Shown: piece by piece, positions 8,882 through 63,157 of the stretch
Position numbering within the stretch: the stretch's first letter is position 1
Layout of the letters: the number at the start of each line of letters is the position of its first letter
NCBI GenBank assembly: GCA_964016885.1
Contig: OZ024748.1
Location: 58,652,001 to 58,716,000 of the forward strand
Length of the DNA: 64,000 nucleotides
Direction of reading: 5' to 3'
Source: Eledone cirrhosa
Taxonomy: Eukaryota
Position numbers and translations under genes: made by a program
The notes under the pieces: model-generated
Told to the model about the DNA's origin: nothing
The model's database searches: none
What the model saw: the letters and a program-made list of their open reading frames with translations, nothing else

Positions 8882-9446
8882 ATATTGTTATACTTGGGGA
8901 AGGTCATATTGTTGTAATAATATTGCCAGAATTAATAAAAGCACACATTCACTGTTTGGTTGGTTTTCGCTTCTGTATCTTTTATATCAGTTAATTTATT
9001 CGGTCCACAATGTTTACCATTGACTGACCAACGTTCAAAAATACAGATATAATATAGACACAAACACATATATATATAGTCTAACAAAGTTCTTTCGTTG
9101 CGCATCTGCAACATCGTCAGTGGTGCTATTATGTTTCCTCCTGTTGCATTGTATGTCTACGCCATCTTTATTTATTTACAATGCAACAGGAGGAAACATA
9201 ATAGCACCACTGACGATTTTGCAGATGTGCAACGAAAGAAGTTTCTTAGACTATGTATATGTGTTTCTGTCTATATTATATCTGTATTTTTGACCGTTGG
9301 TCAGTCAATGGAAAATATTGAGGACCGAATAAATTAACTGATATAAAAGATACAGAAGCGAAAATCAACCAAACAGTGAGTGTGTTCTTTTATTAATTCT
9401 TGCAATATTATTACAACAATATGAACCTCCCCAAGTATAACAATAT
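8882..9446. repeat. Long inverted repeat (~270-bp arms, 23-nt spacer) with a hammerhead-like core in each arm
   Basis: Arms 8882-9153 and 9177-9446 are reverse complements with scattered substitutions; flanked by TA-rich runs. Confidence 0.95.
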
Positions 9447-17231: not shown

Positions 17232-17607
17232 AAACGTTTGGGGTTGGGAGGCCAAGACAATGCAGGTATGGATATAGAATATAAATGCAAGTGCAAAAGA
17301 AATTGTTGACAATTAGTCTTATCTTAAATTTATTTAAATATCCTTAATTTTCGAGATAATCTCTTCTTCGGAGGGAAGTAAAGGGTTAATCCAGTGTTCT
17401 AATTATCTTGCCAAGTCATGCCTTGGCAAGATAATTAGAACACTGGATTAACCCTTTACTTCCCTCCGAAGAAGAGATATTATCTCGAAAATTAAGGATA
17501 TTTAAATAAATTTAAGATAAGACTAATTGTCAACAATTTCTTTTGCACTTGCATTTATATTCTATGTCCATACCTGCATTGTCTTGGCCTCCCAACCCCA
17601 AATGTTT
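17232..17607. repeat. Near-perfect spacerless palindrome (~187-bp arms)
   Basis: Centred on CATG at 17417-17420; about three substitutions and one 2-nt indel between arms. Confidence 0.97.
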
Positions 17608-32458: not shown

Positions 32459-32507
<49 letters not shown>

Positions 32508-32668
32508 CTACCAAAATATACGGTAGTGTCCAATCCGTATGAAGAACTAAATGTAATCCAAATATCATGAAAAGAGAACATGCATTCAAAGATGTTCGAT
32601 GAAAATCATAGGAAAACAGTCAAGTTAAATTAATAAAAACAATGAAAAAGTTCCTTATATTAAAAAAT

Positions 32669-32802
32669 TCATCATTTTACGATCGTTTCTAGAATGTATG
32701 TGTGTTGGTATGTTTATCATATAGATCTATGTAAAAATATTACAAATTATCAGAGGAAATATACATATGTTCACATATACACGCTGTCTTCAGAAATGAT
32801 GA
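32669..32802 (-). ncRNA. Type I hammerhead ribozyme in the Penelope 3' repeat
   Basis: tcatcattt-CTGAAGA(32793-32787)-cagcgtgtatatgtg..cacacatacattcta-GAAAC-GATC-GTA-aaatgatga; 9-bp stem I, 12 of 15 pairs in stem II, palindromic stem III. Confidence 0.85.
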
Positions 32803-33342
32803 TTTGTTTATTGAAAAAAAAAACAAGATTTTATATAAAAGGTCTGTTTGGGAACAGGTTTTGAATTGACCAATAGAAAAGTAGTTAGAGGTGAGGTTGA
32901 TAAAATAGTGGTGGTAGAAATTTAATTTAGGGGTAGAGGAGTGCAGACTTATGTTTTGAATGAAAAGAATACTTTGAATGAAAAGAATACTTTGGGGGTG
33001 AAAAGGGGTCAAGCCAGTGAAGGGTACATGACAATTTGATGTTATTAAAGAATGTTAAAAACGAAGGAAAATAAAATTTTGGGATAAGGGTAGTAGTGAG
33101 AAATACCAATCTTATATAAACTACAAGGAATCTAGATTCATAACAGGAAATTAAATTAATTTATAGGTATACTTTTAGGTATTAATTTTAGGAAAAGAGA
33201 GCTGTAAGAGGGAAATAAAATTGTTCTCTGTAGTAAAGTACTAACTATTGGTTAACTAAATTTTTAAAAAAATAATTATATGTAAAATATAAGTGTAACG
33301 TGTATATTAATTAGGTTTATAATATTTGAAGGTTCTTATAAT

Positions 33343-34598
33343 TCTATGAGTGCAAGATATAATTAATTCCTGTCGCTTATTTAATAGGATATATATCCTT
33401 AGATTTCATGATTTCAAAAAGTTCCTGGGATCATAACCTACAGCCAAGGATGTTGTATTAGCTATAATTATTGTTTCAGCCAAGGATGTTGTATTAGCTC
33501 ATGCGGCATTTTTAAAACTATCTTTGTGGGTATTAAATCTTACTTTAAATTGGTTAGACGTAGCTCCTATATATGAATAAGTGGAGTCCTTAGTGCTAAT
33601 TTTACATTTATAGACTGTTATTAATAAGACAATTTCCCTTTAATGGGCAATTTCTTTTGATTCTACAGTTACAACCTTTCGTGAATATTATATCAGGGGA
33701 GTTAGTCAAATTTGGTGTGGAATTTACTCGACTTGTTATAAGTGAAGGAGATGGTGGTTTGTTGCGGTTTATTTTAGTATTATGGTTGGTTTGATGTGTT
33801 GGTGGTATATTTGTCGGTTTTTTTTTTTTTACATTTATATGCGTTGTACGCACTTATATTTTGTTGTATATTTTTGGTAGTGGAGTAAGAAAATTTGACA
33901 CTTGATCTATTTAAAATTTGATGGTATTTATGGTTTAACGGGAAGTTTTTGTCTAGGATAATAAAAAACTTTTTAGGGATATTATCTTTAATTTGTAGAT
34001 ATATATTATATATAGGTTTAGTTAGATTAACTGATTTAGGTGTTTTAGTCTGATTACTAGGAATGTTGTTAGTAATGTTAACATATATTGGAGTATTAGG
34101 ATGAATGGTTTTTTGAAAGTCATATTTTATGTGAGAAGAGGTAGAGAAATTAAGTTTTAGGTTGGTGTTTTTAGGTGTAGTGTGAGTGGCATTTAGGTGT
34201 GGGTTTTTCATTTGGTGTTTGTTGGTAATATTGGGTTGTATGTTTGAAGTATTATTGGTGCAAGGTATATAGACTAATTTGTTTCTGTGGCCGCTTATAG
34301 CTAAAGCTTCGTTATAAAAGGGCGCATTTTTATCGAATACATCCTGGTTAGATGAAAGGTTAGAGATTCTGAGTAAGATATTATATGCTAGGTTTTTAAG
34401 GATAGATCTAGGGTGATTGGATTGTGAGTGTATGTAATGTAAGTTTTGGTTAGGTTTATGGTAAGGTTGGTAGATACTCGTAGATAGGTCTAAGGTTATA
34501 TCTAGGAAATTGACTATTTTATTGGTATTTTCAAATGTAATAGTGAGATTGTAATAGTCTTTGAGGAAAGTTCTAATAAGTCTTTTCTTTTTTTTCAT
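33343..34598 (-). pseudogene. Disrupted Penelope RT-thumb / GIY-YIG endonuclease ORF
   Basis: VNFLDITLDL, YIHSQSNHP, RISNLSS, KFSYS, CNCRIKRNCPLKGNC, VYKC..SYIGATSNQFKVRFNTHKDSF and C-terminal LLNKRQELIISCTHR; frameshifts and deletions. Confidence 0.93.
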
Positions 34599-34672
34599 TT
34601 TCTGATAGGGTACTGGAATTTCAGAAGGAAAACTGGACTAGAAATACATATAGTAATCTCTGCGACATTACT

Positions 34673-34819
34673 TTGGTAATTTGGGCGGAATCACTAGAGC
34701 CCAATCTTAATTTATATTTTCCCCACCTTAAAAGTGGTTTATATCGTGATGACTGTCTTCTTCTTTCCACTAATCTTAGCCTATCAGAAATTGAAAAAAA
34801 TAAAAAACTTTTTAGAACT
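34673..34819 (+). pseudogene. Inverted Penelope RT catalytic fragment (YRDD)
   Basis: SGLYRDDCLLL...LSEIEKNKKLFRT; 34780-34819 duplicates 34569-34609 in inverted orientation. Confidence 0.85.
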
Positions 34820-35330
34820 CAGACAATAAAGGGCCGTAACTCTTTGCTGCAAAGCATGTTGTCCGACCCCCTACCGATACTGGCAATCCACCGCCCTTAC
34901 CCATAACTAATCTTAACTGGGAGCTGTAGCATTAGTTTGTAGTGATAGATAAAACGGAACCCACTTGTTACAATATCATTCTTTAATGTAGAGTATAAGT
35001 CCGTGTTAGGTTCAAATCCTGCAGATGTTGATTTCGCTTTTCATCCATATGGGGCCCGTAAAATAAAGTACCAGTATCCCACAGGGGTCCGTTTAATCGA
35101 TCTTCTCCCCCCCCCCTCAAAAAAAGAATTGTGGGCATTTTGCTCCAATCAGAAACCGTTATTATAACTCCCTGTAAGGGCGATGTATTGGCAGTCTCTG
35201 TTGAGTGTCGGATAACATGCTTCACTGCATAGTTACATCCCTTTGCGTTCTAATTTCAAATCCCACCGAGGTTAGCCTTGCTTTTCATCTTTTCGGGGTC
35301 GATAAAATAAAGTACCAGTAATGCACTAAA
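34815..35330. mobile_element. SINE cluster: minus-strand head 34815-34897 and plus-strand copies ~35000-35165 and ~35177-35330
   Basis: Matches to the main SINE head, B-box and gtcgataaaataaagtaccagt core. Confidence 0.85.
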
Positions 35331-38710: not shown

Positions 38711-38804
38711 CATTTGCTTCTACAGAGCTAGACTGGTTCATTCAGGAGAAATCATTCCTGATGATTTCTCTCGAACGAAACACTTCTAGTCCTGTAGAAG
38801 CCAT
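38711..38804. repeat. Short imperfect hairpin element in (TA)n
   Basis: gcttctacag/ctgtagaagc outer pair and gagaaatcat/atgatttctc inner pair. Confidence 0.75.
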
Positions 38805-38837
38805 GTCTATATTGACACACACACGCACATTTATATA

Positions 38838-39727
38838 CGAGGTGTGTCAGAAAAGTTCCAGGACTGATGTCACAACAGATTTATTTCAAACCCAAACTTC
38901 GCACTAAGAGTTTTCTCCTTCAATGTAATCCTCCTGGAGTATGCAACTGTAATCTTAGCTCTCTGCAGCCATAAAACTTTTTTCTACATAATTTTATATA
39001 CATATCCTCTGTTTCGTGTCGTCAAGCAATGAGCACAGAGCAACGAACGAACTTAAACTCCGTCAGAAGCATTGGGGTTGCTGCAGCAAGTGTATAGAGA
39101 TCAGACGATCTCACGCTCACGTGTTTTTTAGTGTTGCAAGAGGTTTAAAGCAGGTCGCGAGGACGTGGAAGATGACCGCCAGGAGCGGAAGGTCCTCAAC
39201 AACCAGGACTGAGGTCAACGTTGAGCGCGTCAGGCAGATGGTGCGTAGCGATCGTCGGCTGACTGGTGGCAAATGAGCTGGGCATGAATCGGGACAGCGT
39301 CTGGAAGATTCTCACTGAAAATTTGAACAAGCGGAAAGTCTGCGCGAAGATGGTGCTAAAAACTGCTGAACGATGGCCGGAAGGGTCGATGCATTCAAGT
39401 GCGCTAGGACATCCTCGAGCGTCTTGAAACCGAATCAGACTTGCTAGGGACAGTCATCACCGGAGTGATTGATCTTCGAGTACGACTCTCGGGGGGGGGG
39501 GGGCCGTTTGGAAGACGTGGACGACATCAAAAAGGCCGTGACGACAGAACTGCGGAGGATCCCGGAAAAATCCTTCCAGGAGTGCATGCAAGCGTGGCAT
39601 AAAAAGGATGGAAAAGTGTATTAGACTCCAGGGGCATTATTTTGAAGGAGAAAATCCCTAGTGTGAAGTTTGGGTTTGAAATAAATCTTTTGTGTCAGCA
39701 GTCCTGGAACTTTTCTGACCCACCTCG
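38838..39727 (+). mobile_element. Internally deleted mariner element with ~100-bp inverted ends
   Basis: TA|CGAGG..CCTCG|TA; remnants KRFKAGREDVEDD, RSGRSST, SDRRLT, RKVCAKMV, TVITG, KCIRLQGHYFEG; most of the DDD domain is missing. Confidence 0.95.
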
Positions 39728-44501: not shown

Positions 44502-44541
44502 CCGAGCTGAAGATCCGCGAAGGTGAAACAATTGTTCTCGG
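44502..44541 (+). ncRNA. Minimal type I hammerhead ribozyme
   Basis: ccgag-CTGAAGA-t-cc-gcgaa-gg-t-GAAAC-AATT-GTT-ctcgg; perfect 5-bp stem I, palindromic stem III, GUU triplet. Confidence 0.75.
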
Positions 44542-46772: not shown

Positions 46773-47419
46773 CACAGGTTGTCAACCCATTTAGGCTAAA
46801 TGTACCCTTTTGTCCCTCGAAATCACGAAATGCCCCCCCTCTCTACACTATTTTTCCATTTTTCAATATACTACTGATTTTGATATCTGTAGATTACTAA
46901 AAAATTGATTAATAATATTCCAAAGATACCATTGCAGGCAGCTGAGAGTATAAATACATTCCTTGAAAGGAAATATATAAATTTCAAAAAAAGGAACATA
47001 AATGTTCTTTTTTATGAATAAGGACCAGTTGAATTTGTTATATTCCCACCAGGCGATGCCAGCTATTTTGAACATTTATACAAGAGCAACTCTGTCTATC
47101 CCAAGTGTACGCTTATCTGGAAAAAAGTGGCAATTATATCATTTCAAAGCTTTCCAATTTTCCCTTTAATGTAACAGCTTAGAGACCACGGAAGAGGGTT
47201 TTCATGACTACGCGGGAGGGTATATTTATTAGTAAATGGTAAAATATATACAACAAATGAGTAAGTGAATTGTAGTAGATGGTTTCCAGACCAGTCAGAC
47301 TGCAACTACAAATAAAAAAAATTGTTAGTTTGCTTTGTAACAATAGCATATCCAAGTTTGCAGATAAATCAACTTACTTTAACTTTGACCTCATTTCAAT
47401 GGGACCCTTGAGCTTTATG

Positions 47420-48440
47420 GAGCCTAGCTGGATTTTCGTAAGATTTAGCCGGAGATCTCCACATGTAATTACATTGTAGCAGTTGCGAGCCTTACTGTGC
47501 AGTCTGTAAACAGCACCAAACCTCCTCTTGACTAAGTATGAGCTTGGAAAAGGCAAAGCAAATCTCTTAGCCTCTGTATGTAGGTGTGGAAATCGACGCT
47601 GAATTTCCTCTTGCATCCAAAAAAGGGGTTCACCTATTTTGGGAAATATAATTTTGATCATGTCATCTGCTTGAAGTTCAATGAATTCTTCCTGAAATAT
47701 AACGTCCAAATCATCGAGGTTAGCTATTAAGGGATCTGCTACCCACATTGGGATGTCCATCGGCAAAAGGTCGACAAACCGTTTTCTCATGTTGTCTTGT
47801 AGCGCACGGAGGTGAGCAGTATAAATTTGGAGTTGGTCATCGCTTACAATGTTTTGAACATTGGCGACACTATGAAAATTATAGAATTCCCGTCAACAAA
47901 GATTCCTTTCGATGACATTCAATTTGGCCAGGAATTTTTTCACAGCATTCCTTGCTTTAAGCAAGGTGATCTTCTTCCCCTGCAAAGCCAAAATGATGCT
48001 ATTGCATTTGTCGATGATGTCGGTGAGGTAGGCGCAGTTTTGCCTCTCATCGAGGGTTTTCTTGTACAGTTCTGTGTTGCGTCCTCGCAGAAACTCAATG
48101 ATAGTCGAACAGTTCAAAGAAGTGAGTAAGGCACTTGCCCTTTGAAAACCACCTCACTTCATTATGAAGGATCAACTTGACGAATTCTTCGTCATTATCT
48201 TGGCACAGTTGCCGGAAAATTCGTTCATTGAGGGAATGCCGTTTGATAAAATTGATGACATCAAGGGCCACCTGCAAGGACTTGCTCAGTGGCTTGCTGA
48301 GTTGCTTGACAGCCAAGTGTTGTCGATGAATGATACAATGAACAACAAATACAGATAGATTTTCTCTCTTCAGAAGAGTGACAAAACCCTTATGTTGGCC
48401 GACCATTGCTCTAGCGTCGTCCGTAGCACATGATACAATG
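47420..48440 (-). pseudogene. Frameshifted Buster/Charlie (SCAND3/ZBED8-like) transposase, C-terminal half
   Basis: CATDDARAMVG, VHCIIHRQHL, HNEVRWFSKG, AYLTDI, LQG, LPFPSSYLV, GDLRL across three ORF-track pieces. Confidence 0.93.
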
Positions 48441-48715
48441 TGTGTTGTATTTGGTCCTAGATGTATGTATTACCTTCCTGTGTGTTGTAGGTAGTCCTAG
48501 ACGTATGTATTACCTGTTTATGTATTGCATGTGGTCTTAGATGTATTACCTGTTTATGTATTGCATGTGGTCTTAGATGTATTACCTGCTTATGTGTTGT
48601 ATGTGGTCCTAGATGTGTGTATTACCTGCTTATGTGTTGTATGTGGTCCTAGATCTGTGTATTATCTGATTGTGTTGTATGTGGTGCTAGATGTGTGTGC
48701 TACCCGCTTCTGTGT
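48440..48715. repeat. 36-40-bp minisatellite (~7 units) inside the hAT element
   Basis: Unit tgtgttgtatgtggtcctagatgtgtgtattacctgctta. Confidence 0.92.
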
Positions 48716-62029: not shown

Positions 62030-63157
62030 TTATTAACCTTTTGGGCCCAATAACCTCGATCAGAACAATACACAGCTTGGTATTATTGCCTTCCATAGAA
62101 AGTCTCTATTAATTCCTTCCTCATACGTATCAATCATATTATTGTTATTTGGGGATTTTTTTCAGGTTTTTTTTCTTAAAATATATTCTGAATATATAGA
62201 TCGACGTAACTTTTAAAAGGTTTTCAGTATATTATTTCTACATAGCACGTATTGAGTACTACTGTGTTTTAACACGCAAATGCTTCCCCACTTGATTAGC
62301 GTTTTTCATTATTATGTATTGCTGTTGTGGCAGTGGATTGGTAGTATCGGTAGAGGGTCGGACGCCATACTTTGCAACATAGAGTTATGGCCCTTTATGA
62401 CCTGTGTTCAAATGCCACCGAGATTAACTTTTCCTTTTATCCTAACGGAGTCGATAAAATAAAGTACCAGTCACGCACTGAAGTCGATTAAACGACTTTT
62501 CCCTCCCCCAAAATTGCTGGCCTTGTACCTATATAAGAAATCATTATTATGTATTGCTGTTAGGGCGGTGTATTGGCAGTATCGGTAGAGGGTCAGACGC
62601 CATGCTTTGCAGCAAAGAGTTAGGACCCTTTATGGTCTGAGTTCAAATCCCGCCGAGGTTAACTTTGCCTTTCATCCCTACGGGGTCGATAAAATAAAGT
62701 ACCAGTAATGCACTGGGATAATTGCTGGCCTTGTGCCAAACATAGAAACAATTATGTATTGCTGTTATTGGGTGGTGGATTGGTACAATCGGTAGAGGGT
62801 CGGACGCCATGCTTTGCAGCATAGAGTTACGGCCCTTTATGATCTGAGTGCAAATCCCGCCGAGGTTAACTTTGCCTTTCATCCTTACGGGGTCGATAAA
62901 ATAAAGTACCAGTAATGCACTGGGATAATTGCTGGCCTTGTGCCAAAATTTATTAACCTTTTGGGCCCAATAACCTCCATCAGAACAATACACAGTTTGG
63001 TATTATTGTCTTCCGTAGAAAGTCTCTATTAATTCCTTCCTTATACGTATCAATCACATTGTTTTTACTTAAACTATATTCCCAATACATAGATAGACGT
63101 AACTTGCAAAAGATTTCAGTATATTATTTCTACATAGCACGTATTGAGTACTACTGT
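62030..63157. repeat. Direct duplication (~62030-62265 and ~62950-63157) bracketing the SINE trimer
   Basis: ttattaaccttttgggcccaataacctc...attgagtactactgt present twice with substitutions and indels. Confidence 0.92.
62327..62946 (+). mobile_element. Head-to-tail SINE trimer
   Basis: Three copies, each preceded by attatgtattgctgtt (62311, 62546, 62751). Confidence 0.93.

Follow-up and report, generated by a model that had tools for sequence, protein, structure and literature searches.

A relic of a Hydra-clade Penelope-like element in Eledone cirrhosa with a candidate hammerhead ribozyme and an unusually long stem II

The window analyzed here, a 64,000-nt stretch of Eledone cirrhosa DNA, contains a rearranged Penelope-like element (PLE) that consists of five pieces, with frameshifts, stop codons, a deletion in the endonuclease and an inverted 5' piece of the reverse transcriptase (RT), and continues through an untranslated region (UTR) and a hammerhead motif to a (TA)n repeat (Table 1). 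The single stop-free stretch, of 285 codons (34637-33780), fits a profile of 55 related ORFs with an E value of 1.6e-44 and has a best identity of 49% over 114 aa. A previous, sequence-only reading of this DNA described a Penelope ORF followed on the same strand, after ~540 nt, by the hammerhead. The element is indeed an RT/GIY-YIG PLE, but it has no intact ORF, the linker, GIY-YIG domain and C-terminus lying in other frames with stops; the main piece is on the minus strand, as described, but the RT motif GLYRDD is on the opposite (plus) strand, and stem I begins ~505 nt after the last stop codon (33307). The Pfam match to the GIY-YIG domain (E 0.0029) is below the cut-off, and loose ends of other copies of the family fall at 33442 and 33470. 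At 34250-34040 on the minus strand, ~60 extra N/T/P-rich residues are inserted in frame between the thumb and the linker; these are not in the profile of the relatives and are located outside the stretch covered by reads.

The inverted piece joins the main piece head-to-head, and the 44 nt at its end are a repeat of those with which the main piece starts (38 of the 44 identical). The two breakpoints nearly meet, which suggests that the 5' inversion arose by an event of the twin-priming type, the mechanism of 5' inversion in L1; alternatively, the repeat beginning at 34820 could have shortened an already inverted copy at a later time. PLE copies with an inverted 5' part are common (PMC8557442 section 6). 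Sequence related to a dispersed SINE-like repeat family, with 8 copies of a 141-nt core (34820-35330, 52390, 55803, 62339-62935 and others), begins where the inverted RT piece ends. The opposite, 3' end of the element is at 32502, and 773 reads of other copies (run X7) enter TA repeats beyond 32519; the window copy departs from the other copies at 32575-32636.

Table 1. Features of the element and hammerhead motifs in the window (window positions; motif details are predictions)
Feature	Positions	Strand	Remarks
Inverted 5' piece: RT motif 4 (frameshifted) and GLYRDD (motif 5)	34613-34819	+	profile positions 358-396
Stop-free stretch: RT motifs 6-7, thumb, linker	33780-34612	-	by profile of 55 related ORFs
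CxCx5Cx5C linker (CNC-x5-C-x5-C)	33629-33673	-	out of frame with stop-free stretch
GIY-YIG core (VY...YIG...R...H), ends in stop	33499-33615	-	CCHH cysteine pair absent
Endonuclease deletion, filled by short duplication	33442-33470	-	other copies differ here
C-terminus with LLNKR and CxH (CTH), then stop	33307-33405	-
3' UTR, ~505 nt	32803-33306	-	covered by other copies
Stem I, 5' strand	32802-32794	-	pairs with 32677-32669
Catalytic core CUGAAGA	32793-32787	-
Domain II, 97 nt	32786-32690	-
Domain II, helix IIa, 14 positions	32785-32772 / 32691-32704	-	inside C.A flank
Domain II, 2x2 loop between helices IIa and IIb		-
Domain II, helix IIb, 11 positions	32769-32759 / 32707-32717	-
Domain II, short IIc, then apical 5-bp hairpin		-
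GAA	32689-32687	-
Palindromic stem III ACGAUCGU	32686-32679	-
H17 (A)	32678	-
Stem I, 3' strand	32677-32669	-
3' tail beyond predicted cut	32503-32668	-	high depth at 32510-32589
(TA)n at element 3' end	32470-32502	.
Hammerhead motif, 50-nt domain II, C.A flank, palindromic stem III	43105-43035	-	175 nt before (TA)n
Hammerhead motif, 49-nt domain II, G-C closed, 11-bp inner hairpin (z -4.3)	26425-26357	-	91 nt before (TA)n
Hammerhead motif, 8-bp stem I, 32-nt domain II	15540-15490	-	60 nt before (TA)n
Short hammerhead family with palindrome ACAAUUGU	2388-2424; 2485-2515; 44507-44536	-; +; +

The clade of the element was assigned by comparison with related ORFs. A homologue search yielded 6 proteins among 1956 candidates, and an alignment of these retrieved the best 80 of 282 metagenome loci and 11 loci from genome_contigs; in viral_contigs, no related ORF was found. 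The comparison profile comprises the 55 of these 91 loci whose ORF is 600 aa long or longer. All five pieces of the window element fit this profile in order (positions 358-723), with no other match below E 1 among the 2091 window frames. The marks of the Hydra clade are RWK, DKT, a CxCx5C linker, CxxC before a conserved E, CxH, and the absence of CCHH (PMC8557442 section 11). Among the 55 related ORFs, RWK/RMRW was found in 46, DK[TS] in 52, GLYRDD in 53, CxC..Cx5C in 52, CxxC..E in 52 and the C-terminal CxH in 48; a CCHH-like pattern occurs in 2. In the window copy, the N-terminal RWK and DKT (present in 46 and 52 of the 55 relatives) were lost by 5' truncation, and the CxxC before the conserved E (52 of the 55) falls in the 33470-33442 deletion. 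The CxH after the conserved N is present (LLNKR...CTH), GLYRDD, NFLDITLDL and SNHP match Hydra ORFs, and the (TA)n insertion site is a typical Hydra target. In the supplement of PMC8557442, LYRDD is confined to Hydra rows among the 12 of its 15 places that were listed.

The sequence-only reading had called the element Neptune-type, and Neptune elements likewise combine a C-terminal GIY-YIG, a preceding cysteine linker and (TA)n targeting. However, Neptune rows in the published alignment have a CX2-5CxxC linker and, ahead of YVG/YIG, another pair of cysteines (PMC8557442); the window element has CxCx5Cx5C in place of the former and lacks the latter, with no paired cysteines from VY to YIG, and its C-terminal CxH and the GLYRDD, NFLDITLDL and SNHP motifs are those of Hydra ORFs, making the Neptune assignment hardly credible. 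Naiad and Chlamys PLEs, which have an N-terminal endonuclease, are ruled out by the C-terminal endonuclease of the window element. By motifs and similarity, we assign the element to the Hydra clade (Craig et al. 2021, PMC8557442; e.g. Hydra-1_Obim and Penelope-17_HM), with which it shares the order of RT and GIY-YIG, the CxCx5C linker, the absence of CCHH, the C-terminal CxH and the (TA)n end, as well as a type I hammerhead, located in the 3' end, whose stem III is near-palindromic and 3-4 bp long, a frequent mismatch flanking stem II, and inverted 5' pieces (e.g. Penelope-13_HM). It differs in the 97-nt domain II, compared to 12-26 nt in the 26 Hydra rows of File S2, in the ~505-nt 3' UTR and in the ~60 extra linker residues. 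The hammerhead sequence itself is unlike that of Hydra-1_Obim, which has a 23-nt domain II, so that the two belong to different families.

With its CUGANGA, GAAA and UH segments arranged about three stems, of which stem I is the open one, the hammerhead has the features of type I. We recovered the previously noted 9-bp stem I (all Watson-Crick pairs), palindromic stem III and GUA site on the minus strand, and the same predicted cut, between 32678 and 32677; self-cleavage is predicted at this GUA. In a scan for the pattern CUGANGA...GAAA-palindrome-UH with a stem I of at least 7 bp, this was the sole motif in the window with a perfectly palindromic stem III and such a stem I, and none of 200 dinucleotide shuffles in 2-kb blocks yielded one. 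The R10.1-Y11.1 pair that closes stem II is absent, its place being taken by a C.A mismatch followed by A-U. A mismatch at this flank is common in the clade: among 28 relatives, 17 have one, and the flanks are U.U in 14, G-C in 11, C.A in 1 and other in 2. U.U in this position is reported to be tolerated in hammerheads (PMC3088659). One related element (L030) has a hammerhead with the identical C.A flank 3' of its ORF and a long 3' UTR (479 nt), but a 21-nt domain II. A second core nested in the arm, CUGAUAA at 32753, was rejected because the G at 32747 in other copies makes no core.

What sets this hammerhead apart is domain II, about four times the usual length. Small-helix-III PLE hammerheads have reportedly been described by Lunse et al. 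in 2017. Folded in isolation, domain II forms an irregular hairpin of -19.4 kcal/mol, a stability equaled by 3 of 500 and 4 of 200 shuffles in two controls; position 32783/32693 is unpaired both in the window copy and in the listed letters from other copies. The sequence-only reading regarded the ~97-nt stem II as much longer than usual, and by our count by eye, the 26 Hydra rows of PMC8557442 File S2 have domains II of 12-26 nt, the longest among all PLEs there being ~50 nt in two spike-moss elements. The latter, PLE-X1_sMoe and PLE-X1_sTam, provide a precedent for long arms; they are, however, endonuclease-less plant elements in 28S rDNA, with an arm half as long and without the 8-nt palindromic stem III. 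We also scanned those 75 of the 91 related loci in which the end of the ORF could be located and was followed by 150 nt or more, allowing domains II of up to 200 nt. A hammerhead was found behind the ORF in 51 of the 75, with a domain II of 12-31 nt; a relaxed pass over the other 24 gave 5 with 21-29 nt, 1 poor match, which was rejected, and 18 without a hammerhead. These loci are often near-duplicates, so that the counts are not independent. The locus L024, with a 191-nt spacing and a non-canonical core, was rejected as a chance match.

Standard searches, as had been anticipated, miss this hammerhead. The published min-HHR descriptor limits stem II to 7 bp and its loop to 10 nt (26 nt in total) and requires GAAANNUH (PMC4209133 supplement), and the window hammerhead fails it with both its 97-nt domain II and its 6-nt inner palindrome. 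With Rfam (4227 families, E up to 1), 87 window matches were obtained, none to a hammerhead family; given that Rfam also missed the short motifs in the window, the long arm is not the specific cause of this miss. With a covariance model built from the 28 relatives, 19 matches were obtained (E up to 5); the hammerhead at 32.7 kb was not among them, although the model weakly found the motifs at 15.5, 26.4, 43.1, 44.5 and 2.4-2.5 kb. Exact patterns of the window hammerhead had no match in genome_contigs or in viral_contigs. The association of PLEs with hammerheads, which the sequence-only reading proposed to link the ribozyme class to an RT/endonuclease, does hold in that the hammerhead belongs to the 3' end of the element, but it is not new: hammerheads at PLE 3' ends were published in 2014 (PMC4209133) and those of Hydra elements in 2021 (PMC8557442 File S2). 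The arm is the novel part, and no description of a stem II of ~100 nt in a PLE hammerhead was found in the literature searched, mainly open-access papers.

A long arm in a single decayed element might be an insertion private to the window copy, or a late, non-functional expansion in a family with a short active hammerhead. In favor of this explanation, all 51 hammerheads behind related ORFs have arms of 12-31 nt, and domain II resembles the local TG/TA/CA microsatellites. The other copies of the family provide the relevant evidence. Records from 4 of 9 listed runs were placed on 32510-33700 at a likeness of at least 80% to the window copy, a limit at which short-armed relatives would appear only as joints or loose ends. 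They comprise 2579 (X1), 66 (X5) and 1527 (X6) contigs from three organisms, and 7301 X7 reads, with depth in 30, 29, 28 and 30 of the 30 bins for X1, X5, X6 and X7, respectively. The depth, whose sum should not be taken as the number of copies, has its maxima over the hammerhead and at the 3' end and drops from the 3' arm to the 5' arm (in X1, 339k, 176k, 72k and 21k per bin). Overlapping pieces tile the hammerhead, the UTR and the ORF, and none of the listed records is long enough to include the complete hammerhead or all of the stretch, so that we infer the long arm of the other copies from these overlaps.

In organism A, most copies differ from the window copy at 7 listed places in domain II. 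Four of the differences repair a mismatch (32714, 32747, 32768 and 32769): three of these are in helix IIb, on both arms, bringing it to 11 of 11 pairs, and one is in IIc. Of the remaining three, one turns G.U into A-U, one turns G-C into G.U, one leaves a mismatch, and none breaks a pair. For comparison, 99 of the 291 possible single changes in domain II would break a IIa-IIb pair, and 11 would repair one; the chance of the observed pattern, ~3e-4 for IIa and IIb only, is indicative, the IIc register having been chosen after the letters were seen. In organism C, position 32785, in the first stem II pair, is G throughout (264/264 depth), a letter that is in the minority elsewhere, and loose ends (unphased) give C opposite to it; this change looks compensatory. 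Among the 40 difference rows listed, beyond which lie a further 236 difference rows and 28 indel rows, none affects the core, stem I or stem III, and stem I/III pairing is thus kept across copies (unphased). The possibilities that other copies lack this pairing, or that the 3' region is an unrelated insertion, had been raised from the sequence; instead, the copies cover both arms with stems I and III kept, and coverage runs from the ORF through the hammerhead into (TA)n.

The arm does vary. In one X6 contig, 49 nt of domain II are replaced by 6 (making it ~43 nt shorter), which would fit a private arm, 58 X6 contigs carry a different 3' arm, insertions of 2 or 4 nt in helix IIa are found in 252 and 282 of ~2470 X7 reads, and 910 X7 reads diverge at 32706. 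However, a joint skipping the entire arm is absent among the 15 of 38 joints listed, both arms and the apex are deeply covered by contigs and reads from three organisms, and the letters of other copies pair better than those of the window copy. The explanation by an arm private to the window copy is therefore already largely refuted and, in our estimate, highly improbable. We read the long arm as a trait of the family that appears to be under selection for pairing, with a variable sequence, and that has decayed in the window copy. Beside stem I, many copies carry insertions, of 6 nt at 32661 (1025 of 1348 X7 reads) and of 2 nt at 32801 (171 of 455), which could lengthen stem I past an internal loop.

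Taken together, these observations indicate that the window probably contains the dead copy of a Hydra-clade PLE, truncated and inverted at its 5' end, from a family with many copies. The element ends in (TA)n, and the stem II of its type I hammerhead motif is a hairpin of ~97 nt that is family-wide; cutting is predicted in dimers only, likely in transcripts of tandem copies. In folding calculations, the stem III of the monomer, 2 bp with a GAUC loop, comes to +2.4 kcal/mol alone, and the intermolecular ACGAUCGU duplex, of 8 bp, to -10.0 kcal/mol; the lowest fold of the monomer (-25.8) buries the core, compared to -24.1 for the active fold. Hence, a lone stem III would be too weak, and two copies would pair their ACGAUCGU palindromes into 8 bp, forming two active cores. 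Cleavage is likely to be slow and dimer-dependent; for PLE hammerheads with a weak palindromic stem III, dimer cleavage at low rates has been reported (PMC4209133, PMC6765202 and PMC7761336). In tandem (pseudo-LTR) transcripts, the cut after GUA would likely release the downstream unit with a free 5' end. Inserted copies extend ~175 nt beyond the predicted cut site, so that the cut does not define the 3' end of the template. The long arm would be a rigid extension outside the core that likely originated by slippage of TG/TA/CA repeats and is kept paired by selection such that the core still folds. The window copy itself is probably inactive because helix IIb pairs were lost and a partner is absent in the window. 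The anatomy, the clade motifs and the long arm of the family are what the sequences show; at every step of this scheme, catalysis and function are inferred.

The minimal PLE hammerheads of Cervera and de la Pena (2014) share type I, the palindromic stem III, the predicted dimer cleavage and an extra nucleotide after A9 with the window hammerhead, which breaks both their limit of 26 nt for domain II and GAAANNUH (PMC4209133). The Poseidon element PAc of the green anole (PMC11167929) is also a PLE with a pseudo-LTR hammerhead, but it belongs to another clade, has a short stem II and has been tested in vitro, whereas the window hammerhead is predicted from sequence. In the same account, the cut of PAc in vitro is protein-assisted and dispensable for insertion (in the one PLE tested), and reverse transcription begins at internal sites that give a genomic tail. 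A cut that does not set the 3' end fits this anole element (PMC11167929); that its cleavage is dispensable for insertion also counts against the scheme proposed here.

Additional hammerhead motifs are present in the window, among them three with long arms, found in a scan that allowed a near-palindromic stem III. Together with the hammerhead at 32.7 kb, the long-armed motifs number four, each of them on the minus strand and followed by (TA)5 after 60-175 nt, against a mean of 0.1 per window in shuffled sequences (10 of 100 shuffles had one). The previous suggestion that the hammerhead of the element anchors the interpretation of the other modules holds only loosely, the other three long-armed motifs being families of distinct sequence, with no ORF of theirs in the window. 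The 43.1-kb motif gives an AT-rich, gapped alignment with the hammerhead at 32.7 kb, in which the resemblance is limited to the base of stem II. The element around the 43.1-kb motif (~43500-42860) carries the 3' half of this motif in inverted orientation at ~43485-43460, has an 85-nt direct repeat at each end, and resembles a short non-autonomous PLE. Of the short hammerheads, those at 2388-2424 and 2485-2515 form a head-to-head inverted pair between microsatellites; at 38752-38812 (+), the hammerhead model matches weakly (E 0.019, poor stems). Close to the 3' ends of Naiad_Obim and Naiad_Ovul, GAAAC precedes CUGAUGA by ~25-30 nt (PMC8557442 File S5), which, judging by the letters, is the order of a permuted hammerhead; an interpretation of the motifs with arms of 32-50 nt as the 'half core' Naiad ends of PMC8557442 was not supported. 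Six short motifs gave no match in the supplement of PMC8557442, in which line breaks may hide matches. The window also contains near-perfect long inverted repeats (8882-9446, 17371-17466 and 2758-2859), which are MITE-like hairpins and account for spurious microRNA matches in Rfam. Its sequence is rich in AT and in microsatellites, in the manner of octopus genomes. Two frames at 47374-48469 (-) resemble what we take to be a broken hAT-type transposase, and a frame at 38992-39276 (+) presumably corresponds to the N-terminus of a mariner transposase.

The four motifs, which are unrelated and have arms of 32-97 nt where 0.1 are expected, bear on the possibility that the arm has a job of its own, docking on an extended stem I or binding a protein of the element or a double-strand RNA-binding protein of the host, and thus tuning or switching cleavage. 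The ~25 bp of pairing preserved in three organisms would agree with this, the insertion behind 32661 could extend stem I beyond a bulge, and cutting by the anole PLE hammerhead requires an element protein (PMC11167929). However, the arm differs in sequence and length between subfamilies, the apical sequence is not common to the four motifs, a loop-loop complement was not identified, and the need of the core to fold suffices to explain the pairing; we therefore consider such a function unlikely and prefer the passive, paired extension described above. Also a matter of conjecture, and in our opinion doubtful, is the broader proposal that hammerheads with arms of 30-100 nt form a sub-type of their own, kept by selection, at the ends of PLEs that target (TA)n in this animal lineage, abundant and missed by current descriptors, with the arm being a functional module (a tertiary dock or a protein platform) that would control dimer cleavage.

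The association of a PLE with a hammerhead is by itself ordinary, and the window copy is dead. The role of hammerheads in PLEs is, however, still debated, and a high-copy family with a paired arm of 97 nt is a natural test: the many copies permit analysis of covariation, and comparisons of long with short arms and of monomers with dimers are simple. Given that four motifs with arms of 32-97 nt lie within one 64-kb window, descriptors with short loops undercount hammerheads in such genomes, and this extends to calls of 'no hammerhead'.
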